Shown here: positions 3,476-58,891 of the stretch, piece after piece
How the letters are laid out: each line of letters opens with the position of its first letter
How positions within the stretch are numbered: the stretch's first letter is position 1
NCBI GenBank assembly: GCA_943359335.1
Contig: CALRHC010000003.1
Location: 1 to 62,697, forward strand
DNA: 62,697 nucleotides
Source: Candidatus Yanofskybacteria bacterium
GTDB lineage: Bacteria > Patescibacteriota > Minisyncoccia > JACQLN01
Direction: 5' to 3'
The notes under the pieces: generated by a model
The model's database searches: none
Told to the model about the DNA's origin: nothing
Seen by the model: only the letters and a program-made list of their open reading frames with translations
Translations under genes and position numbers: made by a program

Positions 3476-4195
3476 TCATCTTGTTTTTGCTTTGGCTTTT
3501 TCTGCCAACTTATCAAAGTGTTCATTCATTAGATAGGCCATAGCTTCTAGCCTGCCTAGTGTGGAAACATCCCCAAATAGTCCATACAAAAGCTGATCTA
3601 AAATCAAAGTTCTGAGTGGAGATATAGAGTCGAGATTAATCCTGTCTTCATTAAAATCTTGGCGGACCTTTTTTAGAATAAAATTTATATCTGCCAATCT
3701 CGCTGGTTTTTGCCATGCTTCGCCCTGTACACGCACATATTTTTTTACGTGCATAGACAGTTCATTTTCATACTCATTTGGAAGGGTCGGTACATTTAAC
3801 TTATTTGCGACAATAAACCGATATATAACTTCAGGTAGTAGGTTAGAAAATTCTGTTTGAGATTTCCAAACTGAATCGTGCCAAACAGCAGCTCTAAAAA
3901 TGCCTAAGATGATACCTTCTCCAAAAAAAGTTTTGAAATTTGGTAGACAATCAACGACGGCTTTTAACCATATATCTCTTCCTGCAAAACGTATGCAAGC
4001 AGCCTCCGAAATTTTTGCGGATATATTCCAACTTAAATAACTGCATCTATCTACAAGACCTCTAAGCTCGCGATCAGTATCTTTAGAGTTATGATCATGT
4101 TTTTCTAGTATCGAAAAAGCAACTAGTAAATATTGAAGATCTGAGGAATCATCGGAAAATAAAACTTGTCCAGCTTGGATTGCTAAGCTATTCAT
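3476..4195 (-). CDS. Orphan hypothetical protein (weak HD-like RAAVWHD motif)
   Basis: 239-aa ORF with GAGGAG SD, own promoter and own terminator, between ftsW and murG. Confidence 0.7.
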   Translation of the reverse strand: MNSLAIQAGQVLFSDDSSDLQYLLVAFSILEKHDHNSKDTDRELRGLVDRCSYLSWNISAKISEAACIRFAGRDIWLKAVVDCLPNFKTFFGEGIILGIFRAAVWHDSVWKSQTEFSNLLPEVIYRFIVANKLNVPTLPNEYENELSMHVKKYVRVQGEAWQKPARLADINFILKKVRQDFNEDRINLDSISPLRTLILDQLLYGLFGDVSTLGRLEAMAYLMNEHFDKLAEKAKAKTR

Positions 4196-10319: not shown

Positions 10320-11717
10320 TTATTTTTTATCTAGAATCTTAATACCTAATTCTTTTAACTGTTTTTCCGAAATTTCGGCTGGTGCGTCCATCATTAAATC
10401 GCGGCCATCGCCGGTTTTAGGGAAAGAAAATACTTCGCGAATATTTGGTTCGCCTGTAAGCAATGTAATTAATCTATCCAAACCCCAAGCAATGCCACCA
10501 TGTGGAGGTGCACCATAACCTAAGGCTGTAAGCATGTGCCCAAAATTAGAAGCAATTCTTTCTTCCGAAAAACCCATAATTTCAAAAACCTTTCTTAATG
10601 GTTCTGGTTTGTGGTTACGAATACTGCCACCACCAATTTCGAAACCATTTAAAGCTATATCGTATTGAGTTGTTAAAATTTCACCAATTTTTTCTTTTTT
10701 CATTAACCATTCCATATGTTCATTTTTAGGTTTAGAAAATGGGTTATGAGTAAATGTCCAAGTGTTATCGTCGTTTTTTTCGAAAAACGGAAAGTCTATA
10801 ACCCAGCAAAAAGCTAGTAAGTCTTTATCTTCTTTATCTTTTCGTAAATCGGGCCTGTCGGTTCCGTATTTTTCCATAGCTTCCGCATAGCTAATTCTTG
10901 GGAAAGGAGTTTCTTGGATTTTTTTGTTTGGGAATAGTTCTTTTACTAAACCAATAAGCATAGATTCGTTTTCGGCTATTACATCTTCACGCTCCACAAA
11001 CGACATCTCCATATCCATTTGAGTAAATTCTGGTTGTCTATCGCCTCTTGTGTCTTCATCTCTAAAACAACGAGCAATCTGGAAATACTTTTCAAAACCA
11101 GCAACCATTAACAGTTGTTTGTATTGTTGCGGAGCTTGAGGTAAAGCATAAAATTTTCCATTTTGTAAGCGAGAAGGTACAACATAATCTCGAGCACCTT
11201 CTGGGGTCGATTTTGTTAATATTGGAGTTTCAATTTCTACGAATTCCTTTTCGGCAAGCCAGTTTCTAATAAACTGAATTATTTGAAAACGAGTGCGGAT
11301 ATTTTTTTGTAATCTGTCTCGGCGTAAATCTAAATAGCGGTATTTCATTCGCAAATCCTCGCCTAGTTCTAAGCCATCTGTATCTAAAGCAAAAGGTGGG
11401 GTTACGCATTCGTTTAAAATTTCGAGGGCTGTAACCTGAAGTTCTACCTCGCCTGTAGGAATTTCGGCATTTACCATACCCTTTGGTCGTTCCGAAACTT
11501 GTCCTTCTAAACGCACTACAAAGCCTGTGCGAAGAGTATCGCCTAAACTATGTAGTTCTTTGTTGTTTGGCAAAAAAACACACTGCAAGGTGCCGGTTCT
11601 GTCTTTAACGTCTATAAAGATAAGTTTACCGTGATCTCGCCTACCCCAAATCCAGCCGGAAACACTAACATTTTGCCCCTTGTTTTCGGGGGTTTTAGAT
11701 ATCAAAATTCGTTCCAT
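10320..11717 (-). CDS. aspS: Aspartate--tRNA(Asp/Asn) ligase, short form lacking the GAD insert
   Basis: RDHGKLIF, QIARCFRDED, YGTDRPDLR joined almost directly to WVIDFP, GAPPHGGIAWGLDR. Confidence 0.95.
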   Translation of the reverse strand: MERILISKTPENKGQNVSVSGWIWGRRDHGKLIFIDVKDRTGTLQCVFLPNNKELHSLGDTLRTGFVVRLEGQVSERPKGMVNAEIPTGEVELQVTALEILNECVTPPFALDTDGLELGEDLRMKYRYLDLRRDRLQKNIRTRFQIIQFIRNWLAEKEFVEIETPILTKSTPEGARDYVVPSRLQNGKFYALPQAPQQYKQLLMVAGFEKYFQIARCFRDEDTRGDRQPEFTQMDMEMSFVEREDVIAENESMLIGLVKELFPNKKIQETPFPRISYAEAMEKYGTDRPDLRKDKEDKDLLAFCWVIDFPFFEKNDDNTWTFTHNPFSKPKNEHMEWLMKKEKIGEILTTQYDIALNGFEIGGGSIRNHKPEPLRKVFEIMGFSEERIASNFGHMLTALGYGAPPHGGIAWGLDRLITLLTGEPNIREVFSFPKTGDGRDLMMDAPAEISEKQLKELGIKILDKK

Positions 11718-11773: not shown

Positions 11774-12462
11774 TTAAATTGATTTTATTATTTTTAATAT
11801 TTCTTTTTTTGTATTACATGTTATGCCTAATGACATGGACCATGTGGTTTTATTATTTTTTATCACATATTCAGCAGCTTCTTTTCCAAATAAGTGTCCC
11901 ATAACACTAGCCGATTCTTCTATAGATGAGAATTGCAGAGGAACAATTATTCCCTTTTTAATCCAGCTTAAATTACAGTTTCTTGGTGATATAATCCTTG
12001 AACTACGAGAAACTCTCCATTCTTCAAAATTAGGAGCGCGTATACTATCAGGTATATATTTAAACCACATTTCATTTAACTCGTCATTAAAAGTTTCATC
12101 CCATCCTATGGTAAAAAAGTATCCGTCATCGGTTAGTAAGGAAGCAACAGATTTTAATTCTTCAATTACTAATTTTCTATCACTAATTCTACTAGGAAAA
12201 CCAAAACCACTTATTATAAAAGACGATTGTGTTTCTTCTAATAACTTATAAACATTTTTTATTGTTGAATTAGACTCCCGATATTCCAGTCGTACGAATA
12301 CTTATAATCACCAAGGTTTATAAGTAAATTTTTAAGAATATCTTTTTTATCTTTTGAACTATTAATCAGGTTCGCTAGTTCTTTTAGCTTTTTTTCTGAA
12401 AATATTTTTTGACTTAACCTAGAGTAGTTATTTGTAATTATTTCATCTAATATTTTCTCCAT
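11774..12462 (-). pseudogene. Frameshifted hypothetical gene (possible methyltransferase-like fold)
   Basis: 67-aa ORF 12462-12259 overlaps a second frame open 12301-11774 with no ATG until 12070; one extra base would give a 229-aa protein. Confidence 0.55.
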
Positions 12463-13054: not shown

Positions 13055-14671
13055 CTATATTTCCAAAAGCTCTAATATTTTTTCTCTGTCTGCAGCCCAT
13101 AAGAAAGTGGAAAGCCGAGGGCCGGTGTCTTTGCCTATTAACAAGTTATATATGTCTTTAAAGAAGCTTCTTTGCAATGGCGCATTTTCTTGGTCGGATA
13201 AGCTGGAATCTTTAGGTATGCTATAAACTAAAAGATCTAATTCTTTTATTGTGGCTTTGCTATTAGAAAGTAATTCTTGTCTTAATTTTATAACTTGTTC
13301 TAATTTACTTTCGGTTAAGGTTTTTATATACTCTGTATTTTTTTCTTCTAGTAGTTTTATTATTTCTTCTTTATTATAAGTTTCGAGCCATGCTCTCGCC
13401 TTCTCGGTTCTTGTGGTAATGGATTCTAGATCGTATTTTAAATCCATACTTTCTAAGACCTGTATAAGTTTATTTTTATCCCACTGTATTATTTGTCCAA
13501 ACGAAACAGCTTGGCGAAAAGGAATCGGTGGTAAAGAATTGTCTACCTTAACACCACTTAGGTTCATAGAATCTTTTTGCCAGTTTTCTAGAGTATTATT
13601 TTTTAGCGCCTCTATGTTTGTATCGAATTCGCTATATTGTTTGTAAATTTCGCTATTAAAAGCAATAGAAAAAGTTTGGGTTGGTAATTTTTGCAAGTAG
13701 ATCCATTTTAAAAGTTCTGGTGTATAAACTTCTAACAATGTTTGAGGTGAAATTGCGTTGCCCTTAGACCCAGACATTTTTGTACCTAAACCTTGTATGC
13801 CTACAAAGTTATATTCCTGAAACACTGGTGGCAAAATATTAAAAATTTCTTTAGCTATTACACTGGAAACATCAAAACTGCTTCCGGGTGAAGCGTGGTC
13901 GTGCCCCGCAGGTTCAAAATTAACGTTTTCTATTTTCCAACGCATTGGCCAATCTACCTTCCAAGAAAGTTTTACAATTCTATCTTTAGTAAAATCGATT
14001 GTTTCTGTATTGCCAGTATCAAAACATTTATATGTAATTTTTGTGCCACTATCGTATTCTAAAACTTTGGTATTATCTTTTCCGGTAAATTTTGAATATA
14101 CAGAAATTGGATAATAGTTTTGCTTGTATTCTTCTGGGTTTATGTTTTTATCTTCCTTCCCTTTTTCTGTCATAAAGGAAAGCAAAACATCCGCAATTTT
14201 TTGACGGTTTTTTAAGGCGTGAACTATTTGCTCGTCGTACTTACCAAGTGCGTATTCTTTGGTTTGGTATCTGTATTCGAGTTCTATGCCAAGCTTTTTC
14301 ATAGAGTTTTCGAATTCTTTTTCAAACTTTTCTGCGTAAGAAGCATATTCTTTTTCTGGGCTAGGCACAGCAGATAAAGGTTTGCCAATATGTTCGGCAA
14401 AAGATTCGTTTAGGCCAGAAGGTATTTTTCTTAAACGGTCGAATTCATCCCAAGAAAAAATAAAGCGTACATTTTTACCTTTTTCTTTTAATTTTTTAGC
14501 AACAGCAAAAGAAGTTATAACATCACGAAAATTTCCAAAGTGAACCACCCCAGAAGGGCTTATACCAGCAGCGCAGGTGTAAATTTTTTCATTAGGAAAC
14601 TTCTCTATAACCTTATCGGCAATAGTATCGGCCCAATGCTTTGTTTCGTCGAGTTTTTTGTTAGCTTCCAT
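13055..14671 (-). CDS. lysS: Lysine--tRNA ligase, class I
   Basis: AAGISPSGVVHFGNFRD, WKVDWPMRW, KMSGSKGN; probable ATG at 14671 (ORF track uses TTG 14680). Confidence 0.93.
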   Translation of the reverse strand: MEANKKLDETKHWADTIADKVIEKFPNEKIYTCAAGISPSGVVHFGNFRDVITSFAVAKKLKEKGKNVRFIFSWDEFDRLRKIPSGLNESFAEHIGKPLSAVPSPEKEYASYAEKFEKEFENSMKKLGIELEYRYQTKEYALGKYDEQIVHALKNRQKIADVLLSFMTEKGKEDKNINPEEYKQNYYPISVYSKFTGKDNTKVLEYDSGTKITYKCFDTGNTETIDFTKDRIVKLSWKVDWPMRWKIENVNFEPAGHDHASPGSSFDVSSVIAKEIFNILPPVFQEYNFVGIQGLGTKMSGSKGNAISPQTLLEVYTPELLKWIYLQKLPTQTFSIAFNSEIYKQYSEFDTNIEALKNNTLENWQKDSMNLSGVKVDNSLPPIPFRQAVSFGQIIQWDKNKLIQVLESMDLKYDLESITTRTEKARAWLETYNKEEIIKLLEEKNTEYIKTLTESKLEQVIKLRQELLSNSKATIKELDLLVYSIPKDSSLSDQENAPLQRSFFKDIYNLLIGKDTGPRLSTFLWAADREKILELLEI

Positions 14672-46582: not shown

Positions 46583-49039
46583 TCATAGATTAAATTTTGG
46601 TTCGTTTGGCTGGGGTTGAGCCTGCTCTAACGATGGCCCTAATCTGGCCCGTGCTAATATTTCTTGCTCTACCACCTCTCTCTCTTTGCCATAAGTCATA
46701 CGAGATAAATTCTTAACAACCTTTATGGTTTCGGCGTTCCCCTGAACTGGTGGGTATGTTTTCAAATTAAAAGGGCGTGATGTTTGCCCTTTAAACATAA
46801 GTTTAACATAGGCATTATGGTTATCTAAATTTAATAAATCTCGTTCGTTAAAGAGCGGGGCTAGTTGTGGTTTTAAAAATTCAGCGTCTTCCACACCAAT
46901 TCTAAACATAATCATGGTGCCAACGTTACCAAAAACCGCCGCCTTAATTTTATCGGTAAGTTGCGCAATAAATTGGTGTGCCATTATCATGCTTAAACGA
47001 TATTTTCTAGCTTCGGAAAGAATAGTAGCAATAGAATCGGTGGTAAAATTTTGAAATTCATCTAAATATAAATAAAAATCTACCCTTTCCGATTCATTCA
47101 TGTAAGCCCGCCTCATTGCAGTCAATTGGAGTTTACCCACTATCATTAAACCTAAAAGATTAGCGTTAACATCACCAACCTTACCCTTAGAAAGATTAGC
47201 TAAGAGTATTTTTTTATTATTCATAACGTCGGCAAAATTTATTCCGGATTTTGCTTGGCCTATAATATTTCGCATCATGCCGTTTTCTATAAACCTACCA
47301 ACCTTAGAAACCAAATAGCCCAACATTTCCGATTTATGAAAATCGCTGGTTTGAGCCATTTCTTTTTCCCAAAAAGATTTAACAATTGGATCTGTAACCT
47401 TAGCTACCTTCTTTTTTTGAAACTCTTTATCGGTAAAAATTCTTGGAATTTCTACCAGAGTTCCGGGGTCGGCTTCGTCGGCCATTAAAGTAAGCATGGC
47501 ATTTCGCATATTGTGTTCAAACATTGGCCCCATTGTTTCTGGTGGAAACAATTTGTAAAAAATCGACATCATTTCCTGAACCACAAAATCACGCTCTTCG
47601 GCACTGGCCGCTTCTAACATATTTATACCAATTGGGCGTTCAATATCGGCAGGATCAAATAAAATTACATCTTTCCATCGATGCTGTGGAATATGCGACA
47701 AAGTATATTCAACTAAGTCGCCATGCGGATCCAAAACAGCAATACCATTACCCATTTCTACATCTTGGCGAATCATTTCTTGTAACAACGTAGATTTACC
47801 TGTTCCGGTTTGACCAATAACATAAGAATGGCGTCTGCGATCATCTGGCGCTATTCTTACAATTACTTGTTGCGAGCGAAATTCATTCCAACCCAAATAT
47901 GGCCCATCGTTCATACCCCACGGCGCTGGAGCCGAACGAGCCTTTAACCATTTTATTTTTGGTACTTTTATACCAGTATGCGGTAAATGATAAATACTCG
48001 TAAGTTCTTCGGAACTTAAAATTATCTTTTTTTCTTCGTCGAAAAGCCTAAAACTAAATTCAAAAATAGCATCTTTTGTTTTTTCTTTGCTTCGTGAAAA
48101 ATCGTTAACGTTTGGTAAAGCAAATTGGTTAAAAGAAGTTTCAAAATCTTTTAATATGAGTTCGGCACGCTCTTCTGTTGGCGCCGATGCCACCATACGA
48201 ATATTAACTTCAAAATTAGGTTTTGAAGCATGGTTATCGATAGCTTTTATAACTACTTGGTCTTGATTAGTTAAAGGAGGAAGAGTATCGGGTTTTGGTT
48301 TTTTAAAAAAAAGTTCATTTACTAGCCAGTTTCTTTTGGCTTCCTTTAAAGCCCTCTCGAAAGGTAAACCTAACTGCATTTTCTTGGTAACCTTTAAAGC
48401 TGTTTTGTTAAACTTTTTTGACACCGGCCTCATTAAAACCTGCATTACAGCGCCTTCACCATCTGTAAGTTTAGAAAACTGTGTAGTAATTTCGTTTAAC
48501 GGGTCAACTTCTAATTCTTGATACGACCTTATAGGCAAAAAAGAACTGCGGCGTGTCATTAAATAAGAAGCAGCCACACCACCACCGTGTTCGGGTGTAA
48601 AAATATTATAATCTGGAACAGGTTCTACTACAGCTTCCGAAGAAACAGAATGAACTGCTCTTACAAGCATATCGCGGTATCGCGAAGGTACAGAAACATA
48701 AAACCTAATTTCATTTTTTACATAAGCTATTTCCCAAACTAAATAGGGTTGGCCAAATTCAAAAATTCTCCACCCACCACCCTCTTTCATGGAAGCAAAC
48801 ACAGAATATAATTGTTCCATCGGCAAAGTTCTTTCTTTATCTGTTTTAGGTTTTTGCCCAGGTTCTAAATATTCGTCTTGAGGAATCAAAATCAAAAAAA
48901 GCTCCATATTAAGACCACGAGCAACACGCCCACGATTCTTAATGGAACTTGCAACAAAATAAAAAACAATAAGCCCGGCTATAAATAAGCCGAACAACAA
49001 ACTTACACTTGAAAGAAATCCCGATAAAATTTCTGACAT
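46583..49039 (-). CDS. VirD4/TraG-like (HerA/FtsK superfamily, DUF87) membrane ATPase
   Basis: RRHSYVIGQTGTGKS, LDPHGD, LYLDEFQ, SEARKY, AVFGNVGT. Confidence 0.9.
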   Translation of the reverse strand: MSEILSGFLSSVSLLFGLFIAGLIVFYFVASSIKNRGRVARGLNMELFLILIPQDEYLEPGQKPKTDKERTLPMEQLYSVFASMKEGGGWRIFEFGQPYLVWEIAYVKNEIRFYVSVPSRYRDMLVRAVHSVSSEAVVEPVPDYNIFTPEHGGGVAASYLMTRRSSFLPIRSYQELEVDPLNEITTQFSKLTDGEGAVMQVLMRPVSKKFNKTALKVTKKMQLGLPFERALKEAKRNWLVNELFFKKPKPDTLPPLTNQDQVVIKAIDNHASKPNFEVNIRMVASAPTEERAELILKDFETSFNQFALPNVNDFSRSKEKTKDAIFEFSFRLFDEEKKIILSSEELTSIYHLPHTGIKVPKIKWLKARSAPAPWGMNDGPYLGWNEFRSQQVIVRIAPDDRRRHSYVIGQTGTGKSTLLQEMIRQDVEMGNGIAVLDPHGDLVEYTLSHIPQHRWKDVILFDPADIERPIGINMLEAASAEERDFVVQEMMSIFYKLFPPETMGPMFEHNMRNAMLTLMADEADPGTLVEIPRIFTDKEFQKKKVAKVTDPIVKSFWEKEMAQTSDFHKSEMLGYLVSKVGRFIENGMMRNIIGQAKSGINFADVMNNKKILLANLSKGKVGDVNANLLGLMIVGKLQLTAMRRAYMNESERVDFYLYLDEFQNFTTDSIATILSEARKYRLSMIMAHQFIAQLTDKIKAAVFGNVGTMIMFRIGVEDAEFLKPQLAPLFNERDLLNLDNHNAYVKLMFKGQTSRPFNLKTYPPVQGNAETIKVVKNLSRMTYGKEREVVEQEILARARLGPSLEQAQPQPNEPKFNL

Positions 49040-49545: not shown

Positions 49546-51129
49546 ATGATATTATTATATCATAATTTAAGCTCTCAAATGAAAAAAACAACTCTTTTGG
49601 TTTTGTTGGGCATTCTAGCAATATCTATATTTTTTAGATTCTACAATATAAAAGAAACCCCTCCTGGTTTATACCCAGACGAAGCTGTTAATGGCGTAAA
49701 TGCCCAAGACGCCTTAGAAAACCATAATTGGAAAGTATTTTACCCCGAAAATTATGGTCGCGAAGGATTGTTTATAAACCTTCAATCTATAAGCGTTAAT
49801 CATTTTGGCGCTTACCCTTGGGCATTAAGAGTGGTTTCCGGAATATTCGGTGTTCTTACTGTTTTTGGCCTATTTTTATTAACTCGAGTTTTATGGGGCG
49901 ACCGCATAGCTTTGCTTTCTAGTTATATGATGGCTATAAGTTTTTGGGCGGTTAATTTTTCGCGCATAGGCTTTCGGGCCATAATGTTGCCTTTTGTTTT
50001 GGTATGGGCGTTTTACTTTTTTTGGAGCGGAATTTTAAAACAAAATAAATATTTAATTATAATTGCAGGTTTAATTTATGGCTTAGGATTCCACACTTAT
50101 ATTTCTTGGCGATTATCTCCGTTTCTTGTTCTTTTGGTTTTTATAATGCTTCTTGTTAAAAAAGACTACAATAAAAAGTTTATTTTAAAATCTATTTTAT
50201 GGTTTTCTATAGCAGGTTTTTTAATAATGGCGCCACTCGCTATTTATTACTTAAACAATATTCCCGATTTTTTTGGCCGAGCTAGCGACGTTTCTATTTT
50301 TAAATCGGCGTCTCCTATAAAAGCTTTTACTGAATCTACCTTAAAAACACTTGGAATGTTTAACTATTCTGGCGATACCAACTGGCGACACAACCTTTCG
50401 GGTAGGCCCGAACTTTTTTGGCCGTTTGGCATAGGTTTTATTGTTGGCCTCGCTTTAGCAATAAGAAGATTTACTTCGGATAGAAATTTCTTTTTAATTT
50501 CTTGGTTTTTTGTAATGCTGTTGCCAAATTTTTTAGCGCCAGAAGGCGCGCCGCATGCTTTGCGTGCACTTGGCGCCATGCCGGCGGTGTTTATACTTTC
50601 TGCTATTGGTTTAAATAGTTTTTATATATTTATTCAAAATAAACTAGACAGCAAATTAAAAAAGGTAGATGATCAAAAATTAATAAAAAAAATTCAGCGT
50701 ATTAAAAAAGAATTTTCTTATTTATGTTTACTGGTTTTGGTTTTATGTGGAATCTGGGAATTTAGAACTTATTTTGTTGTATGGGCAAATAAAATGCAGG
50801 TTATAGATAATTTTGAAACTCGCCTAACCCACATAGCCGATTATTTAAACGGTTTAAACCCTAACACTAAAAAATACGTAATAGTAAACGAAACCGGATC
50901 CATAATAAAAGGTGTTTCTATTCAAGCTCAACCAATTATGTTTTTGGCGAGCAAACAAGATGTAAAATATTTAAACTTAAATGAAATTGATTCTATTCCT
51001 TTGTATTTAACCGACGCCACTATAGTTTTAACAAAATACGACAAAGAATTATTTAAAAAAATAATGGCAAATTATCCAAACGCCCACGAAGCCAACTTAA
51101 TAACCTTTAAAGCAATTAGAATACAATGA
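49546..51129 (+). CDS. GT-C (ArnT/PMT-like) glycosyltransferase
   Basis: PPGLYPDEA, NFSRIGFR, many TM helices; start may be 49579. Confidence 0.88.
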   Translation: MILLYHNLSSQMKKTTLLVLLGILAISIFFRFYNIKETPPGLYPDEAVNGVNAQDALENHNWKVFYPENYGREGLFINLQSISVNHFGAYPWALRVVSGIFGVLTVFGLFLLTRVLWGDRIALLSSYMMAISFWAVNFSRIGFRAIMLPFVLVWAFYFFWSGILKQNKYLIIIAGLIYGLGFHTYISWRLSPFLVLLVFIMLLVKKDYNKKFILKSILWFSIAGFLIMAPLAIYYLNNIPDFFGRASDVSIFKSASPIKAFTESTLKTLGMFNYSGDTNWRHNLSGRPELFWPFGIGFIVGLALAIRRFTSDRNFFLISWFFVMLLPNFLAPEGAPHALRALGAMPAVFILSAIGLNSFYIFIQNKLDSKLKKVDDQKLIKKIQRIKKEFSYLCLLVLVLCGIWEFRTYFVVWANKMQVIDNFETRLTHIADYLNGLNPNTKKYVIVNETGSIIKGVSIQAQPIMFLASKQDVKYLNLNEIDSIPLYLTDATIVLTKYDKELFKKIMANYPNAHEANLITFKAIRIQ

Positions 51130-52844
51130 AAAATTTAAAATATAATGTTCTTGCTGGGTTAATAATAATTTCTGCTTTGGCCTTGGCCATATTTTCGGTT
51201 AAGGGAGATTCCGTAACTACAGATGAATCACCCCACGTTACAGCTGGGTATTCTTACTTAACGCAAAAAGATATGCGTTTAAACCCAGAACACCCACCCT
51301 TAATGAAGGATCTTGCTGGGATTCCTCTTTTATTTAAAAACATAAAAATAGACACCGAACATTATTCTTGGAAAACCGATATTAACGGCCAGTGGACATT
51401 TGGTACTCATTTTCTATATGAAAGCGGAAACAACCCAGACGAATTAATTTTTAATGCACGCCTTGCCGTAATGCTTATTTTTGTTTTGCTAGGAATTTTT
51501 GTTTATATATGGACAAAAGAAAGATACGGCGCCAAAACAGGCTTATTAGGTTTGTTTTTAACAGTATTTTCGCCAAACATTATTGCGCATGGTCGCTACG
51601 TAACTACCGATGTCGCCGCTGCCTTTGCTTTTGTTTTGGGTAGTTACTTTTTTGTTAAATATATAACCCACCAAACAACCAAGAACTTAATATTTGCCGG
51701 TATTGCTTTTGGCATTGCTCAACTATTAAAATTTTCTTTAATTATTTTAGTGCCATTGTTTGTTTTTACTGGTTTAGTTTATTGGCTGGTTTCTAAAAAA
51801 ATATCTTTTATTAAATTAGTATCTAGCTTAGCCGGAATATTTGTTATTGGCGCCTTAGTTATTTGGCCTGTGTATGAATTTCATGTATATAAATATCCAC
51901 CCCAAAGGCAAAAGATGGACACACAATTTGCTTTAAGGTCTTACCAAGTTAAACCACTAGCCGATGCGGTTATTTGGGCAGCAGATAAACCATTGCTTCG
52001 CCCTTACGCGCAATATTCTTTAGGCTTACTAATGGTTTTTCAACGCACTGGCGGAGGCAACACCACATATTTTATGGGCGATGTTTCTAACATTGCTTGG
52101 AAAAGCTACTTCCCAACAGTTTATGCTTTAAAAGAAACTATCCCTGCCTTAGCTTTAATATTAATTGCGCTTTTGTTAGGAATAAAAAAAATCTCACAAA
52201 ATTGGAAAAGAAAAGCTAAATGGTTTACAGAAAATTTTACCGAATTTGTTTGGCTCAGTTTTATAATAATTTATTGGGCGTTAAGCATTAAAGGAAACTT
52301 AAATATTGGTGTACGGCATGTCCTGCCAACCTTTCCTTTTATATATATGCTTACAGCTGGGCAAATTAGTGGTTGGGTAAAAACTGGAATAAAACCAATA
52401 AAAGTTTTGGTGGTTTGTATTTTTTCTGTTTGGCTTGGTATGGAAACAATAAGCACTTACCCATACTATCTTAGTTACTATAACGAACTGGCTGGTGGGC
52501 CAGATAATGGTTATAAATATGCGGTGGATTCCAATTTAGATTGGGGGCAAGATTTAAAACGTTTAACCCAATACGTTAACGAAAATAATATAGACAAAAT
52601 AAAACTGGATTACTTTGGTGGTGGTAACCCAGAATATTATTTAGGCAACAAATACGAACGCTTAGATGCTCACAACACTTCGCAACGCCACGGCTGGCTA
52701 GCAGTTTCTGCTTCACTCCTCCAAAACGGCAGAGCCACTGCAACCAAAAACTTTCAAGGCGATACAACTTCTTATAAATGGCTAGATGCTTACACTCCCG
52801 TAGCCAAAATTGGTTATTCTATATTTGTTTATAGAATTGATTAG
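51126..52844 (+). CDS. GT-C (family 39/83-like) glycosyltransferase
   Basis: TTDESPH, NPEHPPLMK, HGRYVTTD, VDSNLDWGQDL. Confidence 0.88.
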   Translation: MKNLKYNVLAGLIIISALALAIFSVKGDSVTTDESPHVTAGYSYLTQKDMRLNPEHPPLMKDLAGIPLLFKNIKIDTEHYSWKTDINGQWTFGTHFLYESGNNPDELIFNARLAVMLIFVLLGIFVYIWTKERYGAKTGLLGLFLTVFSPNIIAHGRYVTTDVAAAFAFVLGSYFFVKYITHQTTKNLIFAGIAFGIAQLLKFSLIILVPLFVFTGLVYWLVSKKISFIKLVSSLAGIFVIGALVIWPVYEFHVYKYPPQRQKMDTQFALRSYQVKPLADAVIWAADKPLLRPYAQYSLGLLMVFQRTGGGNTTYFMGDVSNIAWKSYFPTVYALKETIPALALILIALLLGIKKISQNWKRKAKWFTENFTEFVWLSFIIIYWALSIKGNLNIGVRHVLPTFPFIYMLTAGQISGWVKTGIKPIKVLVVCIFSVWLGMETISTYPYYLSYYNELAGGPDNGYKYAVDSNLDWGQDLKRLTQYVNENNIDKIKLDYFGGGNPEYYLGNKYERLDAHNTSQRHGWLAVSASLLQNGRATATKNFQGDTTSYKWLDAYTPVAKIGYSIFVYRID

Positions 52845-52860
52845 TGAGAATTGATATGCT

Positions 52861-53727
52861 TTAATAACCTATCTTAAATTTTAACTTGAATTTATTTTGA
52901 TACTGGTATTCATGTAGTTTTTCAATAAAATTTGATTTTTCATTATAAAATTTCCGAGGTACAAAAAAATCTTTTATCTTTTCATTTAACCAAATAGAAA
53001 TTTTCTCACAAAAAGATAGAAGCAAGAAGAAAGATAGGGTTACTAGAGGGTTTGCAACAGTAAATTCAGCGATCCATTTATATCGCGTAAACAAAATTGC
53101 CACTAAAAAAGCAAAAAACAAACCGATAAAAAGTGTGTTTCTGAAAATCAAAAAATATTTAAAAAAAGGATCTATATTGTTTATTTTCTCTTCTGAGTAA
53201 GTTTGTTTCTGGTTAAAATTAAATTTATCAACTGCAGTTTCTACACGATCGTAGTGTTTATCTGAAAGCCAAAAAATAAATTTTAAAATGAAGTTGGCAG
53301 TTGAATTAGCTTTACGTTTCCAGGAAAGTCGATCTGATAAATGGTTAAAAGTTAAAATACGAACAAATTCATTCATTGTAAAATTTTTATTTGTCACCTG
53401 ATGAATTATTTTTTTTGAATTTTTATCAAATTTAAACTCTCCAACGTCTGATATAAAATTTGTAACTTTTTTATTATATTCTTCACCATCTGTTATTACA
53501 TACTCAACATCTTTATCTCTACTTTGGGGCTTAGTCATATCCACACCATAAAAAAAACCTTTGTCGAGATCGCCAATTTTTATAAACATTCGTCTACCAT
53601 CCTTATGGTAAGGAGAATTTTTAGGATACTTCCTAATTAACGAAAAACCAATATCATTTCTGAATGCGGTGATAGATTCATCATCTTCTTCCATTGTATA
53701 CAGTTCTTTGAATTCTTCACTGTTCAT
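52861..53727 (-). CDS. Hypothetical protein with 2 C-terminal TM helices
   Basis: 288 aa; start overlaps the upstream stop (ATGA). Confidence 0.75.
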   Translation of the reverse strand: MNSEEFKELYTMEEDDESITAFRNDIGFSLIRKYPKNSPYHKDGRRMFIKIGDLDKGFFYGVDMTKPQSRDKDVEYVITDGEEYNKKVTNFISDVGEFKFDKNSKKIIHQVTNKNFTMNEFVRILTFNHLSDRLSWKRKANSTANFILKFIFWLSDKHYDRVETAVDKFNFNQKQTYSEEKINNIDPFFKYFLIFRNTLFIGLFFAFLVAILFTRYKWIAEFTVANPLVTLSFFLLLSFCEKISIWLNEKIKDFFVPRKFYNEKSNFIEKLHEYQYQNKFKLKFKIGY

Positions 53728-54836
53728 ATTTTTGAAAAACCATTATCTTGACCGATGACTATCAATTTTTGATCTTTAACTGTTGCAACGCCTAAATCCA
53801 AGGAATTAATAAATTTTACATATGAAGTATCCTTGGGTTCTTGTGATGGAACTAACAAATTATAAGATTCTTTAAATGTTATTCCTTTTTCTTTTTTAAA
53901 TTTATCAATCTCAAAGTAATCGTATTCAAAAAGCTGTACAATACCCTTGCGGGCTTGAACTCGAAAATTTCTATTTTCCGTACTCTTTACTTCAAAAAGA
54001 AATGACTTTGATTCGTTGTGTGCAAATAAATCAACGTGCTTATTTGAGAGAGTTGCGTAACCCTTGTCACGGAAAATATTTATAAGCTCTTGCAAAACTG
54101 TATGATGTGATAATTCAGCACGCGCCAAAATATCATTATCTCTTGTTATGTGAGAATATGGTTTAACTATTATTCTTTTATTTAGTTCTTCTAAAAATCT
54201 CAAAGAAGCTGCCGAGCGCAGTGTTTCTGTGGCACTGTGGACTTCAGCCATATCTGATAACTTTTCTTCGTTTTTGATTTGACCTCTTAATGAGTGGCCA
54301 GAATATAGATAAAGAGGCCTATCTTGAAATAAAATCTGTTTAGCTACATCAAAAGACACGCTAGAAAAACTACCCATTTGAGGGAATCCTTTAATATTAG
54401 CTATAGGAATTCGATTCACCAATAATTTATCAATTAGTTTTTCTGTTTTTGCATCATTTTTAGGCTCAGGCGACTCCCATATTGCTGGATCAAGTATTTC
54501 ACTAAACAAATATACCTCAGTTAACGGTACTAACAGCGGCCACCTGTTTACTTTATTTTTTATCTCGTAATGCCAGAGAGGTGCTTCCTTTATAGAGAAA
54601 TCGAAACCGACAACCCCAATTCCAATAATTCCCGAAACAGCATTATTGAATGCAGACGTTTGTGAACCGGTACTATGGATAAAAAACACATCTCCAGTTT
54701 GAATATTTTTCCAACGTTCTCTGTGATGTTCCTCTAATCCCCATGTCCAATATTTTAACGCCGTTAACCAGTGTTCTGGCGGCCCCGTAAATCTATAAAA
54801 TCGTTTAGCGTTAAGTGCACTTTTTAAATCAATCAT
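53724..54836 (-). CDS. EVE/PUA-like domain fused to PD-(D/E)XK nuclease (putative modification-dependent endonuclease)
   Basis: EHW..WTWG..W.NIQTGDVFF..GIIGIG..W..RWP (EVE-like); VDLFA..FEVKS..KGIVQLFEY (nuclease). Confidence 0.7.
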   Translation of the reverse strand: MIDLKSALNAKRFYRFTGPPEHWLTALKYWTWGLEEHHRERWKNIQTGDVFFIHSTGSQTSAFNNAVSGIIGIGVVGFDFSIKEAPLWHYEIKNKVNRWPLLVPLTEVYLFSEILDPAIWESPEPKNDAKTEKLIDKLLVNRIPIANIKGFPQMGSFSSVSFDVAKQILFQDRPLYLYSGHSLRGQIKNEEKLSDMAEVHSATETLRSAASLRFLEELNKRIIVKPYSHITRDNDILARAELSHHTVLQELINIFRDKGYATLSNKHVDLFAHNESKSFLFEVKSTENRNFRVQARKGIVQLFEYDYFEIDKFKKEKGITFKESYNLLVPSQEPKDTSYVKFINSLDLGVATVKDQKLIVIGQDNGFSKI

Positions 54837-55180
54837 AATTTATTGTATTTTATATATTTTCCCTTTGCTTTTTCAACAGGATATTTTTCTTCATTCTTTA
54901 AAATCTTATTTTCGAGCGCCTCTAAAACATCAATCTTGAGATCATTACTCATCAGAAGTACCCAATACAAAACATCAGCCAATTCTTCTCCAATATCAGA
55001 TTTATTCGTTACTATATATTTCTCCATCTCTTCCTTGCTCTTCCACTGGAAATGCTCCATAACTTCAGTTGCTTCTAAGACCAAAGACAGTGCAACATCC
55101 TTGGGGTTATGAAATTGCTTCCAATCTCGTGCGTCGCGAAAAGCGATAATTCTTTTTGTTAAATCATTAATATTTTTCAT
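54833..55180 (-). CDS. MazG-like (dCTPP1/RS21-C6-type) nucleotide pyrophosphohydrolase
   Basis: RDWKQFHNPKD..LVLEATEVMEHFQW..EELADV..KNEEKYP. Confidence 0.93.
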   Translation of the reverse strand: MKNINDLTKRIIAFRDARDWKQFHNPKDVALSLVLEATEVMEHFQWKSKEEMEKYIVTNKSDIGEELADVLYWVLLMSNDLKIDVLEALENKILKNEEKYPVEKAKGKYIKYNKL

Positions 55181-55184
55181 AAGT

Positions 55185-55292
55185 TTATTTAAACTTATAA
55201 TACACCTTATTCTGTATGCGTAAATCTAAATAGTCTAATAATGCGGTTGGGCCGGATTTTTTAATCTCAACTTTTGTTTCTGATTCGTTCAT
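55185..55292 (-). pseudogene. Displaced duplicate 3' end of the ftsQ-like gene (35-aa ORF)
   Basis: MNESETK + VEIKKSGPTALLDYLDLRIQNKVYYKFK; 66/68 nt identical between 55204-55271 and 56391-56458. Confidence 0.85.
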
Positions 55293-55293
55293 A

Positions 55294-56151
55294 TTATCTT
55301 TTCCTTCCCCCACCCTTCAAAGATTTCTGATTTTTAAAATTATCTTTTGATATTACTTTTTTACCTGTCTGTATCTCAATGTCTTTTCTGGTTCTGCCAG
55401 CAACGCCTCCACCAACCATTGCATCTCTTTTGAGATCGTCTAATCCACGAGAATCTTTTTCTGAAGTTATTTTTGTCGTGGTCGCCTCACCCAACATGGT
55501 CAGAATAAGTTCTATATCTCCCATATGATCACGCAAATTATCACCAGCTTTTTTATCAAGATTTTTATAATCCATATACTCTTTAGCGCTTTTATCAAAA
55601 GTTGCTTTGTATATTTCATCAGTCAGAATTGCATATTCAAAGCCTTTCGACACTCCACGCTCTTTCCATTCGTCAGTCAGCGTATTTCTAACTGCAATAC
55701 CACGCATACGCTTATCAACCCACTCCTTTGGATACCCCTTTTTGTCATATATTTCCTTTGCTCTTGTTACGGCAAGCTCAGGATTCTGAATTTCCTCAAT
55801 ACGCTCTTGCCCAACTCGAGCGAGCCATTGTTTAAATGGCTCAGCTTTTGGTGATGGTATTGATTGGATAATGCGGAAAGTACCCTGTAAATTAGACACG
55901 TCCGTCAGATAAGACTTACCATCGGAAGACTGCAATTTCAGTTGTCCGATTTTATCGGACAACTCGCTTCCTTCATCTTTTAGCTTTCTTTTTAAATCAT
56001 CCCAGTATTTTCTTGGTCTTTCACTTCCAGATAAGATAGCTATGATGTCAATTACTGAAAAATACCACTCTTCATTATGCCAAGCTCTACGAACCTCTTT
56101 TTCTTCAAAAATCGTCGGATGCATATTAGTTTGTGTTGATTTCTTTTTCAT
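55294..56151 (-). CDS. Bro-N domain (antirepressor-like) protein
   Basis: VRRAWHNEEWYFSVIDII..PRKYW, RIIQSIPSPKAEPFKQWLA, NLRDHM. Confidence 0.9.
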   Translation of the reverse strand: MKKKSTQTNMHPTIFEEKEVRRAWHNEEWYFSVIDIIAILSGSERPRKYWDDLKRKLKDEGSELSDKIGQLKLQSSDGKSYLTDVSNLQGTFRIIQSIPSPKAEPFKQWLARVGQERIEEIQNPELAVTRAKEIYDKKGYPKEWVDKRMRGIAVRNTLTDEWKERGVSKGFEYAILTDEIYKATFDKSAKEYMDYKNLDKKAGDNLRDHMGDIELILTMLGEATTTKITSEKDSRGLDDLKRDAMVGGGVAGRTRKDIEIQTGKKVISKDNFKNQKSLKGGGRKR

Positions 56152-56186
56152 AATTATCTCAAAAACTTGCTATTTTCCTAAATTTG

Positions 56187-56369
56187 AGTTGTTGCATTTT
56201 TTGCAACAGTTGATTTTTCATCAAGTTATTTTTTTATTTTTGAACTATCCGGAAATTCCGGATAACTGAATTTTTACCAAGTTTTTTTCCTTCTTTTTGA
56301 ACTATTCGGAAATTCCGAATAGTTGCCTTTCTATTTAACTCCTATCTATCGAAGTTCCACTTCGATAGA
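56187..56369. repeat. Array of four palindromes; three encode RhuM-type motif variants on the minus strand
   Basis: IRs 56190-56208, 56246-56264, 56300-56324, 56345-56369. Confidence 0.8.
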
Positions 56370-56371
56370 AG

Positions 56372-56980
56372 CTACCTGAATTTGTAGTATACCTTATTCT
56401 GTATGCGTAAATCTAAATAGTCTAACAATGCGGTTGGGCCGGATTTTTTAATTTCAACCAACGATTGTTTTAATGTTTCTAAGGTTTTGTATATATTCTC
56501 GCTTAAGTTTAAACGCAAAACCCAACCTTCGCTTGTTGTAAAATCAAAATCGGAATAGTTGGAATCTTCGGTTTTGGTTTCTACTAGTTCTATTTTAAAA
56601 TTATTAGCTAGCTCCTCTTTTAAAAAATTTATTTTGCCTAAAATTTTAGGGTCTAGTAACTTTTCGCCAACTTTAAGTTCTTTGTTGGTTTTATCTTCCA
56701 CAACCAAAACCAAGTTCCCACTGGTTTTAGCGCCTTCGTTAAAAGAAACTCCATCTTTATTTAACCAAAAACAACTTGTGCTTTGGCATAAAACGGCAGA
56801 TAGTGTTTTATCTATAGAATTTTCCTCTTTTACTTCGTCACTAACGGTATGCTTTTTAAAATAAAAGAATACACCAGTGATTAAAGCTATGGTTAAAAAC
56901 AAAACAGGCCCTGCATAACTAGGGACTTTTACTTTTGAAAAAACATTTTCTTTTTGGGCAGGACGGAATTTTTCAGCCAT
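56372..56980 (-). CDS. FtsQ/DivIB-like cell division protein (short form)
   Basis: Single TM helix, then C..CFWLNKDG and C-terminal LDYLDLRIQNKVYYK. Confidence 0.6.
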   Translation of the reverse strand: MAEKFRPAQKENVFSKVKVPSYAGPVLFLTIALITGVFFYFKKHTVSDEVKEENSIDKTLSAVLCQSTSCFWLNKDGVSFNEGAKTSGNLVLVVEDKTNKELKVGEKLLDPKILGKINFLKEELANNFKIELVETKTEDSNYSDFDFTTSEGWVLRLNLSENIYKTLETLKQSLVEIKKSGPTALLDYLDLRIQNKVYYKFR

Positions 56981-56994
56981 TTTTTAAGTCAAAA

Positions 56995-57112
56995 CCCTAA
57001 ACTCTAAGCACTAAATCCTAAATAAACTCTAATCTTCAAAATTTTAAAACCCCAAACTGTTTAGAACTTAGAATTTAGAACTTGTTTAGAGTTTAGATAT
57101 TAGAGCTTAGAA
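56995..57112. repeat. Two-armed inverted heptamer repeat (xxCTAAx / TTTAGAx)
   Basis: 4 units 56995-57022 and 7 inverted units 57060-57112. Confidence 0.8.
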
Positions 57113-57113
57113 T

Positions 57114-58370
57114 TTAAGACTTTGGATTTATCGATTTAAAAGTAAGATACCTCTGCAAATTCTTAGGAATCACCACCGAACCATCTTCCTTTTGGTTATT
57201 TTCTAATATAGCAATTATAGCGCGTGAAGTGGCTACAGCTGTGCCGTTTAATGTGTGGGCAAAATCCGATTCGCCATTTGGCAAACGGTATTTAATATTT
57301 AAATTTCTGGCTTGGTAATCTGTAGTGTTAGAAGTAGATGTAACTTCGCCCCATTCGCCTCGGCCGGGCATCCAAGCTTCTAGGTCGTATTTAGCGGCGG
57401 CTTGCGCGCCTAAATCGCCAGTACACATTTCTAAAACACGGTAAGGAATATTTAAACCTTGGAAAATTCTTTCTTCCAAACGTAAAATCTCGGCATGCAT
57501 ATTTTTAGATTCTTCGGGTGTGGTATAGGCAAACATTTCTACCTTGGTAAATTGGTGTACCCTATAAAGCCCTTTAGAATATTTTCCGTATGCGCCAGCT
57601 TCGCGGCGGAAACAATGCGAAAGCCCAGCATATTTTTTTGGTAAAACTTTTGAATCTAAAATTTCATCGGAATGGTAAGCGGCTAAAGCAACTTCACTGG
57701 TAGCAATTAAACCTAAATCGGAATCTGTAATTTCGTATGTTTGAGCTTCGTCGCCTTTTGGCAAATAACCCGTACCTAAATAATATTTGGAACGCGCCAT
57801 ATCGGGCGTAAACAAAACTTCGAAACCTTCTTCGCGTAGTAAATCTAGTGTGTAAGTTATTATGGCAAGCTCCAGCATTGCGCCTTCGTTTTTTAAATAG
57901 AAAAATTGGCTACCGGCAACCTTAGCACCAGCTTCAAAATCGACAATGCCTAACTTTTCGGCTAGTTCCAAATGATCCTTTGGTTTAAAAGAAAATTCGG
58001 GAATGTTTCCCACGACTCTTAATTCTTTATTACCTTTATCGCCCTCGCCTTCCACCACATCATCAAAAGCAGGGTTTGGAATTTGCGAAAACTTTGCAGA
58101 AAGATCGCTCTCTACAACATCTAGTTCTTTTTCTTTAACCTTTATTTTTTCTTTTAAGCTTCTGCCTTTTTCACGGTCTTCTTCGGAAGCGTCTTTGCCT
58201 AAAGATGCAATTTCTTTTCCACTACGGCGAAACTCTTCGGTTTCTTGTATTAAAGCGCGGCGGCGCTTATCCATTTCTAAAATTTCGTCAACATCAATTT
58301 TATAACCCTTCCTACGAATGGCTTCTTTTATATAGTCTGGCTTTTCACGAAGTAATTTAATGTCGATCAT
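57114..58370 (-). CDS. serS: Serine--tRNA ligase
   Basis: MIDIKLLR, LIATSE, CFRREAG, GLYRVHQFTKVE, HTLNGT. Confidence 0.97.
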   Translation of the reverse strand: MIDIKLLREKPDYIKEAIRRKGYKIDVDEILEMDKRRRALIQETEEFRRSGKEIASLGKDASEEDREKGRSLKEKIKVKEKELDVVESDLSAKFSQIPNPAFDDVVEGEGDKGNKELRVVGNIPEFSFKPKDHLELAEKLGIVDFEAGAKVAGSQFFYLKNEGAMLELAIITYTLDLLREEGFEVLFTPDMARSKYYLGTGYLPKGDEAQTYEITDSDLGLIATSEVALAAYHSDEILDSKVLPKKYAGLSHCFRREAGAYGKYSKGLYRVHQFTKVEMFAYTTPEESKNMHAEILRLEERIFQGLNIPYRVLEMCTGDLGAQAAAKYDLEAWMPGRGEWGEVTSTSNTTDYQARNLNIKYRLPNGESDFAHTLNGTAVATSRAIIAILENNQKEDGSVVIPKNLQRYLTFKSINPKS

Positions 58371-58381
58371 ATTATTTATAT

Positions 58382-58410
58382 ATTCTAGCTTTTAAAGCAC
58401 CTTGGGTCAA
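58382..58410 (-). promoter_or_regulatory. serS promoter
   Basis: TTGACC-17bp-TAGAAT ending 11 nt before the ATG (near-leaderless). Confidence 0.7.
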
Positions 58411-58412
58411 AG

Positions 58413-58442
58413 AAAAAACCGCGGAGAAAGTTATCTCCGCGG
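58413..58442 (-). terminator. Intrinsic terminator
   Basis: CCGCGGAGA-AAGTTA-TCTCCGCGG plus T6 on the minus strand. Confidence 0.8.
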
Positions 58443-58467
58443 CCGAAACTGGGGGGATCCTCCTCGA

Positions 58468-58653
58468 TTATCCCGAGAAGGGTTGTTGATCTTGTTGGGT
58501 GTCCTTGGGCAAGAACTGGCGGATCTCTTCCACAGGCGCACGTTGCGCAGGATCAATATGAGAGAAACTCGAGCGAAGCGTAGCAAGCTCTCCGATCGAG
58601 AGATCGCGGCGTTGCTCGCTACTGCTAAAGATACTGCCCAAACTATTATCCAT
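58468..58653 (-). CDS. GC-rich orphan 61-aa ORF (or part of a structured RNA)
   Basis: GGGGAG SD-like site, upstream promoter, downstream terminator. Confidence 0.45.
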   Translation of the reverse strand: MDNSLGSIFSSSEQRRDLSIGELATLRSSFSHIDPAQRAPVEEIRQFLPKDTQQDQQPFSG

Positions 58654-58719
58654 ACGGCCTTCTCCCCAGAAGGTGAGTGGATGGGATGATTAAGGAACAC
58701 TAGACTAGCTAGTTTTTAT

Positions 58720-58747
58720 ATTATACAAGACCTGCAAAAATTGGCAA
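58720..58747 (-). promoter_or_regulatory. Sigma70-like promoter
   Basis: TTGCCA-16bp-TATAAT. Confidence 0.6.
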
Positions 58748-58766
58748 ACCTCATTATTATAACGTG

Positions 58767-58815
58767 ACACTTCGACTCGCAGACCTGTCTGCCGACAGGC
58801 AGGCTCTCTCAGTGT
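58767..58815. repeat. ACTTCG..CTCAG element with nested CCTGTCTGCCGACAGGCAGG palindrome
   Basis: Outer ACACT/AGTGT arms; nested imperfect palindrome 58784-58803. Confidence 0.6.
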
Positions 58816-58862
58816 ATTTTTACTTTATTTTTTATATACACTAAAGAAAGTAAAAATAAAAT

Positions 58863-58882
58863 ACCGAGTCCATAGACTCGGT
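58863..58882 (-). terminator. Intrinsic terminator
   Basis: ACCGAGTC-CATA-GACTCGGT plus T-rich tail on the minus strand. Confidence 0.75.
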
Positions 58883-58891
58883 TAATTCTCT

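Follow-up and report, generated by a model that had tools for sequence, protein, structure and literature searches.

How do defence genes travel in tiny genomes that hold few recognisable mobile elements, and how do genes become embedded in restriction–modification (R-M) operons? Both questions are addressed here through a stretch of 62,697 nucleotides from Candidatus Yanofskybacteria bacterium (assembly GCA_943359335.1, contig CALRHC010000003.1, forward strand; hereafter the window), in which an ftsQ-like gene is followed first by a Bro-N gene and then by a second copy of its own 3′ end. At this locus, candidate single-gene defence cassettes stand behind an essential division gene, and their natural gain, loss, reordering and transfer take place exactly at the copies of that gene's tail. 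A first-pass annotation, made from the sequence alone, had described the arrangement as one integration into the 3′ end of the gene. We favour, with rather more conviction than doubt, a different reading: the tail serves as a portable homology arm at which homologous recombination swaps cassettes.

A duplicated gene end flanks the Bro-N cassette

The ftsQ-like gene (202 aa, 56372–56980, minus strand, as are all features described in this section) is an open reading frame (ORF) encoding an N-terminal membrane helix and an FtsQ-type beta domain. Its last 28 codons and stop (56372–56458, with a core at 56391–56458) recur at 55185–55271 as a displaced tail copy of 28 codons plus TAA; both copies were delimited with a repeat finder and by codon comparison. 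The repeat finder reports a direct repeat of 80 nt with 93% identity (55192–55271 and 56379–56458) and a spacing of 1187 nt, and the 68-nt core of this repeat (55204–55271 and 56391–56458) matches at 66 of 68 nt, with two differences. Compared codon by codon, both copies encode (L/K)VEIKKSGPTALLDYLDLRIQNKVYYKF(R/K)* and are separated by seven synonymous sense-codon changes (E, L, V, Y, Y, K and F), one R/K replacement and different stop codons (TAG in the gene, TAA in the displaced copy), which confirms the repeat, the seven synonymous changes and the altered terminal residue given in the first-pass annotation. We refer to the final 21 nt of the gene-internal copy (GTATACTACAAATTCAGGTAG) as variant A and to those of the displaced copy as variant B.

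Between the two copies lie, in the order of transcription, a palindrome-rich spacer of 220 nt that forms the 5′ region of the Bro-N cassette (56152–56371), the Bro-N gene (285 aa, 55294–56151; Pfam Bro-N, PADLOC PDC-S13) and a short stub (55272–55293) reading T plus ATG AAC GAA TCA GAA ACA AAA (MNESETK), which corresponds to the start of hsdR. Stub and displaced tail together make up a 35-codon ORF (55185–55292; ATG at 55292–55290, TAA at 55187–55185). This mini-ORF begins 1 nt past the Bro-N stop and ends 4 nt ahead of the ATG, at 55180, of a MazG-like gene, the spacing that had been noticed at first pass.

The repeat arrangement is not an assembly artefact, because two independent assemblies and the unitig depths agree. 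An independent ENA k141 contig has the gene order of the NCBI contig, which belongs to a metagenome-assembled genome (MAG). Unitig depths from two lake-water runs are 8.5 for the cassette against 9.3–9.7 for the flanks and 12.4 against 12.6–12.8, and a 35-nt unitig common to both tail copies has about twice the depth of cassette and flanks. A duplication created by assembly, which the first-pass annotation had named as fatal to its reading, can thus be set aside in favour of a real one. A Logan contig of 1212 nt (L004) that looked like a possible circle proved to be a unitig running between k-mers shared by both copies. A search with nhmmer detected no additional decayed tail copies in the window, Rfam and tRNA scans gave no match at the locus, and the base composition of the island behind the ftsQ-like gene does not differ from that of its flanks.

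Tail copies separate the cassettes of an array

The comparisons that follow cover about six lineages of metagenome-assembled contigs. In L008, a 69-kb contig of a close relative from the Hainich aquifer, the tail occurs five times: as the real gene end (t1, 8499–8606) and as copies t2 (11092–11169), t3 (12145–12237), t4 (13195–13287) and t5 (14374–14466). These copies separate AbiEi/AbiEii plus a 96-aa gene, RhuM-Fic, KilA-N, Bro-N, and a type II methylase with a nuclease. AbiEi/AbiEii, RhuM-Fic, KilA-N and Bro-N all lie on the strand of the ftsQ-like gene, as co-oriented and mostly single-gene cassettes, and PADLOC places the single-gene ones in PDC-S23/S05 (RhuM-Fic), PDC-S22 (KilA-N) and PDC-S13 (Bro-N). 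The single integration event proposed at first pass is not borne out by this recurrent array of five tail copies. The proposal that the 1.2-kb segment of Bro-N and palindromes is a discrete insertable unit between tail copies stands, since a further Hainich aquifer contig, L219, lacks exactly that unit. L219 holds KilA-N, one hybrid tail and an N6_N4 methylase and is without precisely the 1179-nt Bro-N cassette; its breakpoints fall inside the tails, and both of its flanks are 97–99% identical to L008 and to a third contig, L129. The cassette is thus polymorphic for presence and absence among closely related strains.

The cassettes also change neighbours. Downstream of Bro-N, stub and tail comes the MazG-like gene in the window; L008 has an EcoRI-type methylase at that position and L129 an N6_N4 methylase. 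Variant A of the window together with the palindrome that follows it (P1) is 97% identical to L008 t3, where it stands ahead of the KilA-N cassette. Identity to these contigs is uneven along the locus: positions 55281–55630 of the window match L129 and L008 at 342 of 350 nt, against 80–88% identity for serS, ftsQ-like, greA and folD. The tract of about 98% comprises the 3′ part of Bro-N and the stub; against L129 it continues through the tail and collapses right after the tail stop, and in a sliding comparison its left edge fades gradually within Bro-N. Judged by these identities, the 3′ part of Bro-N and its boundary were transferred between lineages. On account of this tract we withdrew an earlier conclusion that the cassette dates back to the species split, which had relied on identity averaged across the whole gene.

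It is also these observations that bear on the most conservative account of the locus, in which an old tandem duplication left a dead tail copy, the cassettes are immobile and the genomes differ by deletions only. The depth of the cassette, equal to that of the flanks in the two lake samples, and the whole-gene divergence of Bro-N from L008, equal to that of core genes, would both suit such a static relic. The average, however, masks the tract of about 350 nt; Bro-N, stub and tail are found with three different downstream neighbours; a cassette-less variant exists among strains that are 97–99% identical; and the tail alleles in the L008 array are not L008's own. We regard the static account as largely refuted and give it very little credence.

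The boundary joins the start of hsdR to the tail

With the exception of L008 t2, each displaced copy consists of TATGAACGAATCAGAAAC, one base, AAA and then the tail. A scan of 185,579 species genomes with the 18-mer TATGAACGAATCAGAAAC yielded 107 matches, and in 71 of them, mostly in Patescibacteria, it is the exact start of an HsdR-like ORF (MNESETRAEYIDPKLK... or MNESETRAEYIDPKLKASGWG...). By these matches, the mini-ORF opens with the beginning of a type I hsdR gene (ATG plus six codons), which continues in frame into the ftsQ-like tail. The displaced copy, taken at first pass for the old 3′ end of the gene, is therefore a chimera, and the boundary repeat of about 108 nt, which separates cassettes on the ftsQ-like side of the island, comprises the hsdR start and the last 28 ftsQ-like codons. 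The stub–tail junction is identical in the window, L008 t3–t5, L129 and L219, and therefore arose once and was then propagated. The stub of L008 t2 is shorter, either because it stems from a second junction or because it was deleted secondarily.

In other genomes, RhuM-Fic and the 96-aa gene are found directly upstream of an intact hsdR. The idea that the stubs came in with the individual cassettes, each out of an R-M operon, fits these two cases but not Bro-N, whose homologues are followed by an hsdR start in none of the 160 best matches (0 of 80 in genomes and 0 of 80 in viral contigs); the junction is, moreover, identical in four copies, and we rejected the idea. The Bro-N gene of the window lies outside any type I R-M operon, with the 21-nt hsdR start behind it and no hsdM or hsdS nearby. 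A link to phages was likewise rejected: tail and stub were not found in IMG/VR, where Bro-N homologues are common but occur in other contexts.

The boundary may instead have been kept for expression, as an adaptor for passing ribosomes, or for a peptide that mimics the partner-binding strands of FtsQ, with recombination only incidental. Each of the seven displaced copies examined retains an open frame, which begins 1 nt past the upstream stop and in most cases ends 0–4 nt before the downstream start or overlaps it; and differences between copies are mostly synonymous. These synonymous differences, however, match alleles of real ftsQ-like genes and may predate displacement. At codon 7, S is replaced by L, P or F in five of the seven displaced copies, and a Y to F change occurs in one; neither is seen in gene copies, which suggests relaxed constraint. 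The next gene starts 41 nt after the stop in L129 and L219, and the stub of a similar arrangement in L062 (see below) is out of frame. We consider a role of this kind improbable as the explanation of the locus, although it is compatible with recombination at the tails, and the spacing of the tail stops indicates that they may couple the translation of the array.

The duplicated segment completes a predicted FtsQ fold

The host protein falls slightly below the cut-off for the Pfam family FtsQ_DivIB_C (PF03799; 19.8 bits against 21), and a profile search of PDB sequences gave no match. An AF2 model built from 15 homologues has a predicted local distance difference test score of 81–90 in its C-terminal half and a helix at residues 25–43. 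When this model was compared with the PDB using Foldseek, the nine top matches were all FtsQ (probability 0.98–1.00; 8p1u_E, 8bh1_C, 6h9o and 2vh1 among them), with a root-mean-square deviation of 2.9 Å across about 90 columns, and divisome complexes were among the matches. The model thus predicts a protein that is FtsQ-like by fold, with a membrane anchor followed by an FtsQ-type beta domain.

In the model, the duplicated 28 codons run from the end of the last helix through the final two beta-strands of the FtsQ fold. In E. coli FtsQ, the C-terminal strands bind FtsB. As the tail holds the last two strands, its loss should not be tolerated and any insertion must rebuild it. The host ORF is indeed intact in the window, in line with the first-pass reading.

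Proposed recombination at the tail copies

The tail copies themselves are mosaic. The displaced copies of L008 show 2–4 differences from the window alleles and 9–11 from L008's own gene tail; copies t5 of L129 and L008 have near-identical flanks around a central 30 nt with 8 differences; and t4 and t5 of L129 have been homogenised. Mosaic copies and conversion patches of this kind argue for homologous recombination and gene conversion rather than a fixed crossover. The sharp right and diffuse left edges of the transferred tract fit the tail as a short right-hand homology arm.

Every boundary carries a full tail copy. Under the mechanism that we favour, recombination of the gene tail with a boundary, or of one boundary with another, would insert, delete, replace or reorder cassettes while always rebuilding an intact ftsQ-like reading frame. 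The enzymes would be those of ordinary homologous recombination, probably of the RecA type. Incoming DNA, presumably taken up from related cells, would pair through a long left arm in serS/ftsQ-like or in a cassette and through a short right arm in a tail copy. The first stub–tail junction would have come from one illegitimate join and spread afterwards, and since downstream genes would again find themselves 0–4 nt behind a translated tail stop, the array could behave as a single translationally coupled chain.

Site-specific integration, an extension of the first-pass model, would account for several of the same features. Here the cassettes would be integrase-less remnants or satellites of one element family whose attachment (att) site is the ftsQ-like tail; a recombinase would act in trans, and newcomers would displace older elements outwards, as happens when cis-mobilisable elements accrete in tandem or in integron-like arrays. 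Direct repeats of the target 3′ end do flank each unit, the stub is a conserved 'arm' common to all displaced copies, the cassette order would fit accretion in which the newest lies nearest the gene, and a precise empty site exists in L219. Tandem accretion with partial target copies is, moreover, documented for integrative and conjugative elements (ICEs), integrative and mobilisable elements (IMEs) and cis-mobilisable elements (CIMEs) (PMC5704250), and for tycheposons (bioRxiv 10.1101/2020.12.28.424599). In six lineages, however, neither the cassettes nor the surrounding DNA to about 8 kb encode an integrase, a search that extended to recombinase genes around every array (window, L003, L007, L008, L014 and L220), and there is no space for one because the stop of each cassette gene abuts the stub. 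The repeat has neither a hairpin nor a clear dyad: folded as single-stranded DNA, both strands of both copies show no extra stability (z −0.11 to −0.64 against shuffles). The breakpoints are not constant, there are conversion patches, the high-identity tract shared with the Hainich arrays ends leftward inside Bro-N and not at a site, and the 'arm' is a fragment of an hsdR gene. We judge site-specific integration unlikely. Two specific candidates were dismissed as well: attC-like folding, with z values no better than those of shuffles, and a dif/Xer-like site in the tail, for which inspection by eye found a loose AT-rich resemblance with the wrong spacing. The first-pass comparison with e14 and phage 21 implies an integrase and a fixed crossover. 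The 3′-end repeats and the empty site agree with it, and the segment does lack an integrase, as was said at first pass; the absence of a recombinase within about 8 kb and the lack of a hairpin speak against the comparison, and the mosaic copies with their gene-conversion patches argue against a fixed crossover.

Several points weigh against homologous recombination at the tails. The homology spans just 68–108 nt, which is short for efficient RecA recombination, and the cassette is essentially fixed in both lake samples. The reading gives no account of how RhuM-Fic, KilA-N and Bro-N each came to abut an identical stub–tail junction. The junctions are those of assembled contigs, from no more than the six or so lineages already mentioned, and crossovers within the shared 35-mer yield no new 31-mers. 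A recombinase encoded elsewhere in these incomplete genomes is also possible.

A hotspot between ftsQ-like and PMT_2

In seven contigs of more distant relatives (L131, L132, L133 and L135–L138; ftsQ-like proteins 46–56% identical), the order is serS, ftsQ-like and a convergent PMT_2 gene, with nothing between the last two. In the window, serS lies at 57114–58370 (minus strand) and the PMT_2 glycosyltransferase gene, the convergent and conserved far border of the hotspot, at 51126–52844 (plus strand). Because ftsQ-like directly faces PMT_2 in the distant relatives, window positions 52861–56371, including the MazG operon, are island DNA. The first-pass annotation had suggested looking in related genomes for an ftsQ-like gene followed directly by the MazG gene; precise empty sites do exist, but in the distant relatives ftsQ-like faces PMT_2 instead.

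Close relatives (ftsQ-like 85–89% identical) have different gene content at this site in each case: RhuM-Fic-DpnI_C and a SocA-type pair in L007; MerR, DUF4325 and NYN genes in L014; Bro-N, NYN, RadC and a type II R-M system in L005 plus L220; and the long array in L008. We read the convergent ftsQ-like/PMT_2 junction as a hotspot for defence genes within one genus-level clade of Patescibacteria. Literature searches for such an arrangement in Patescibacteria found no report, and the mini-ORF, used as a protein query for further arrays, retrieved Hainich contigs only.

On either side of the Bro-N gene of L005 and L220 (one MAG, two contigs) stands a direct repeat of about 55 nt from the gene's 5′ leader (L005 6775–6835, L220 848–905). 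After the Bro-N stop only TATGAAC of the stub is present, without a tail copy, and the assembly breaks inside the gene.

Similar layouts and hsdR stubs in other genomes

Two other Patescibacteria loci have the same layout at unrelated genes. In a member of the Moraniibacteriota (L062), a 250-nt direct repeat with 98.4% identity (3595–3844 and 5698–5947) comprises the last 160 nt of a gene for a 134-aa membrane protein and 90 nt downstream of it. Between the two repeat copies lie T5orf172 and Fic genes and an hsdR stub (MNESETN); the Fic–stub part is 88% identical to a locus with an intact hsdR, and the similarity stops at the stub. The duplication looks like a recent event with the layout seen in the window, but with the stub out of frame. 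In L054, an hsdS tail and spacer are repeated at 86% identity (239–344 and 5476–5581), enclosing Fic, a full hsdR, a Panacea-type pair (an HTH-Panacea gene and a 116-aa gene) and an hsdR stub of 14 codons that runs in frame into the hsdS tail. Some hsdR stubs, then, mark target duplications. A similar stub fused to an hsdS-like tail was noticed in L120.

Short stubs are also more widespread. The 71 HsdR-like starts include 15 that are truncated within 60 codons and 7 within 60–299, but none within 300–699. Breakpoints therefore pile up at the extreme 5′ end of hsdR. Short hsdR 5′ stubs are thus a recurrent scar and are over-represented in these genomes. Many Patescibacteria among the contigs with TATGAACGAATCAGAAAC matches (L017–L123) have hsdR cut after 9–57 codons, for example L025, L029, L039, L045, L049, L052, L064, L074, L076, L089, L090, L105, L120 and L121.

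The Bro-N cassette, the MazG-like operon and the flanks

The Bro-N gene matches the Pfam Bro-N family (2.7e-11) and, over residues 10–279, positions 5–273 of the 286-position PADLOC profile PDC-S13 (E 2e-115). The PDC families were defined from genes that sit inside type I R-M, BREX or DISARM operons, and they are candidates only (bioRxiv 10.1101/2024.01.29.577857); Bro-N is, by this profile match, a PDC-S13 candidate defence gene. Compared with its counterpart in L008 it is a mosaic, with the first 60 nt and the last ~320 nt 97–100% identical and nt 61–300 only 52–65% identical. The 5′ region of the KilA-N ORF (L008 12259–12358) has 91% DNA identity to the inside of the L008 Bro-N gene (13631–13731), and the part of the L008 gene that resembles KilA-N is the stretch in which the window (55881–56080) and L008 are only 52–65% identical. 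The cassettes seem, from such patchwork similarity, to exchange domain-sized pieces.

The 5′ region of the Bro-N cassette contains four palindromes (P1, 56346–56368; P2, 56300–56324; P2′, 56243–56267; P3, 56187–56211) and a 57-nt tandem unit (56213–56269 and 56270–56326). Palindromes P1–P3 have no other occurrence in the window, and P2 and P3 are kept upstream of Bro-N in L008 and L005; they are probably operators. P2 and P2′ differ by compensating changes in both arms (ATTCGG/CCGAAT against ATCCGG/CCGGAT), and on the plus strand (56243–56368), antisense to the genes, terminator-like scores were obtained for P2, P2′ and P3. About 25 nt upstream of the Bro-N start there is a remnant of the last tail codons, GTGTATTATAAGTTTAGATAA in L008 (13460–13480) and AAATTTAGG in the window (~56174–56186), which suggests that the palindrome modules were inserted later, between tail and gene.

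The distal part of the island (52861–55180) holds the MazG-like gene (54833–55180), a 370-aa gene (53724–54836) and a 288-aa gene (52861–53727), all on the minus strand and each overlapping the next by 4 nt. These genes are absent from all relatives fetched and have no PADLOC match, so that the label of defence operon attached to them at first pass is not supported; they may nevertheless form an undescribed defence system. A sequence search of the PDB with the 370-aa protein gave no match, and a PUA/EVE-like N-terminus and an Hjc-like nuclease are only weakly indicated in it.

On the other side of the ftsQ-like gene, the spacer to serS (56981–57113) contains short repeats of the TAGAA/TTAGA type and a 14-nt inverted repeat (56997–57010 and 57083–57096); the corresponding spacers of relatives are different, equally odd and of low complexity. 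Between serS and a 60-aa ORF, about 500 nt (58400–58890) have a G+C content of 0.44 against ~0.35, with a strong terminator-like hairpin at 58417–58444 and no Rfam match; this stretch could be an unannotated RNA or a decayed gene. A few kb past PMT_2, a gene at 46583–49039 encodes a protein of the DUF87/TraG/VirD4 type (815–818 aa) that is conserved in all relatives (L007, L131, L133 and L135). As it is present with or without an island, it belongs to the core neighbourhood and not to a mobile element.

Relation to known systems

Elements such as e14 and phage 21 integrate in the 3′ end of E. coli icd and supply a surrogate tail. Our locus is like them in that the insert lies between direct repeats of the target's 3′ end, the protein sequence is kept and the copies differ mostly synonymously. 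It differs in having no integrase or excisionase, a 1.2-kb single-gene cassette in place of a prophage, up to five copies, a fusion to the hsdR start and variable breakpoints.

Sedentary chromosomal integrons can hold defence genes, and integron arrays share with the locus the co-oriented, mostly single-gene cassettes, a repeated boundary element and a fixed end at which a cassette is probably best expressed. Here, however, there is no intI, attI or Pc, and the boundary is host-gene coding sequence rather than an attC hairpin. The array is headed by serS and ftsQ-like, with no integrase family among the neighbouring genes.

Campbell-type insertion-duplication and homology-facilitated illegitimate recombination in naturally transformable bacteria are known mainly from the laboratory. 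They too produce a long and variable target duplication (87–250 nt here) around foreign DNA, with one homologous and one illegitimate junction, whereas in our case the duplicated segment seems to be the reusable boundary of a natural cassette array.

CIMEs are decayed ICEs or IMEs mobilised by a related, integrase-bearing neighbour (PMC5704250). As in their tandem accretions, integrase-less segments lie between att-like copies of the target end, stacked at one site; unlike for CIMEs, neither a related ICE or IME with an integrase nor a decayed integrase turned up at the site in six lineages, a small sample. The tycheposons of Prochlorococcus target tRNA genes and include elements with tyrosine recombinases (bioRxiv 10.1101/2020.12.28.424599). 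Their islands resemble ours in the streamlined host genome, growth from the proximal end, partial target copies between insertions and a variability that is highest beside the target, but at our locus a protein-coding tail takes the place of the tRNA gene as target, and no recombinase was seen. The locus therefore resembles tandem accretion, tycheposon islands and integrons, and fails the defining tests of each (no integrase, no attC). We would class it among target-end duplications at integration hotspots, with a boundary element of unusual make-up.

The mechanism by which PDC-type genes become embedded in operons has been left open (bioRxiv 10.1101/2024.01.29.577857). Our array shares with the type I R-M, BREX and DISARM operons cassettes of PDC-S13, PDC-S22 and PDC-S23/S05, and its boundaries begin with an hsdR start; it differs in that there is no hsdM, hsdS or intact hsdR and in that the cassettes stand behind a cell-division gene. 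As a tentative generalisation, Patescibacteria may possess a defence-gene cassette system that has no dedicated recombinase and uses a copy of a host-gene 3′ end as its recombination site, providing a general route out of type I R-M operons to positions behind essential genes. If ordinary homologous recombination suffices, any short duplicated gene end could seed a cassette array, and such arrays would escape searches built on integrases or attC sites. For annotation, the locus is a caution that small tail-like ORFs can be the boundaries of cassettes and not pseudogenes.

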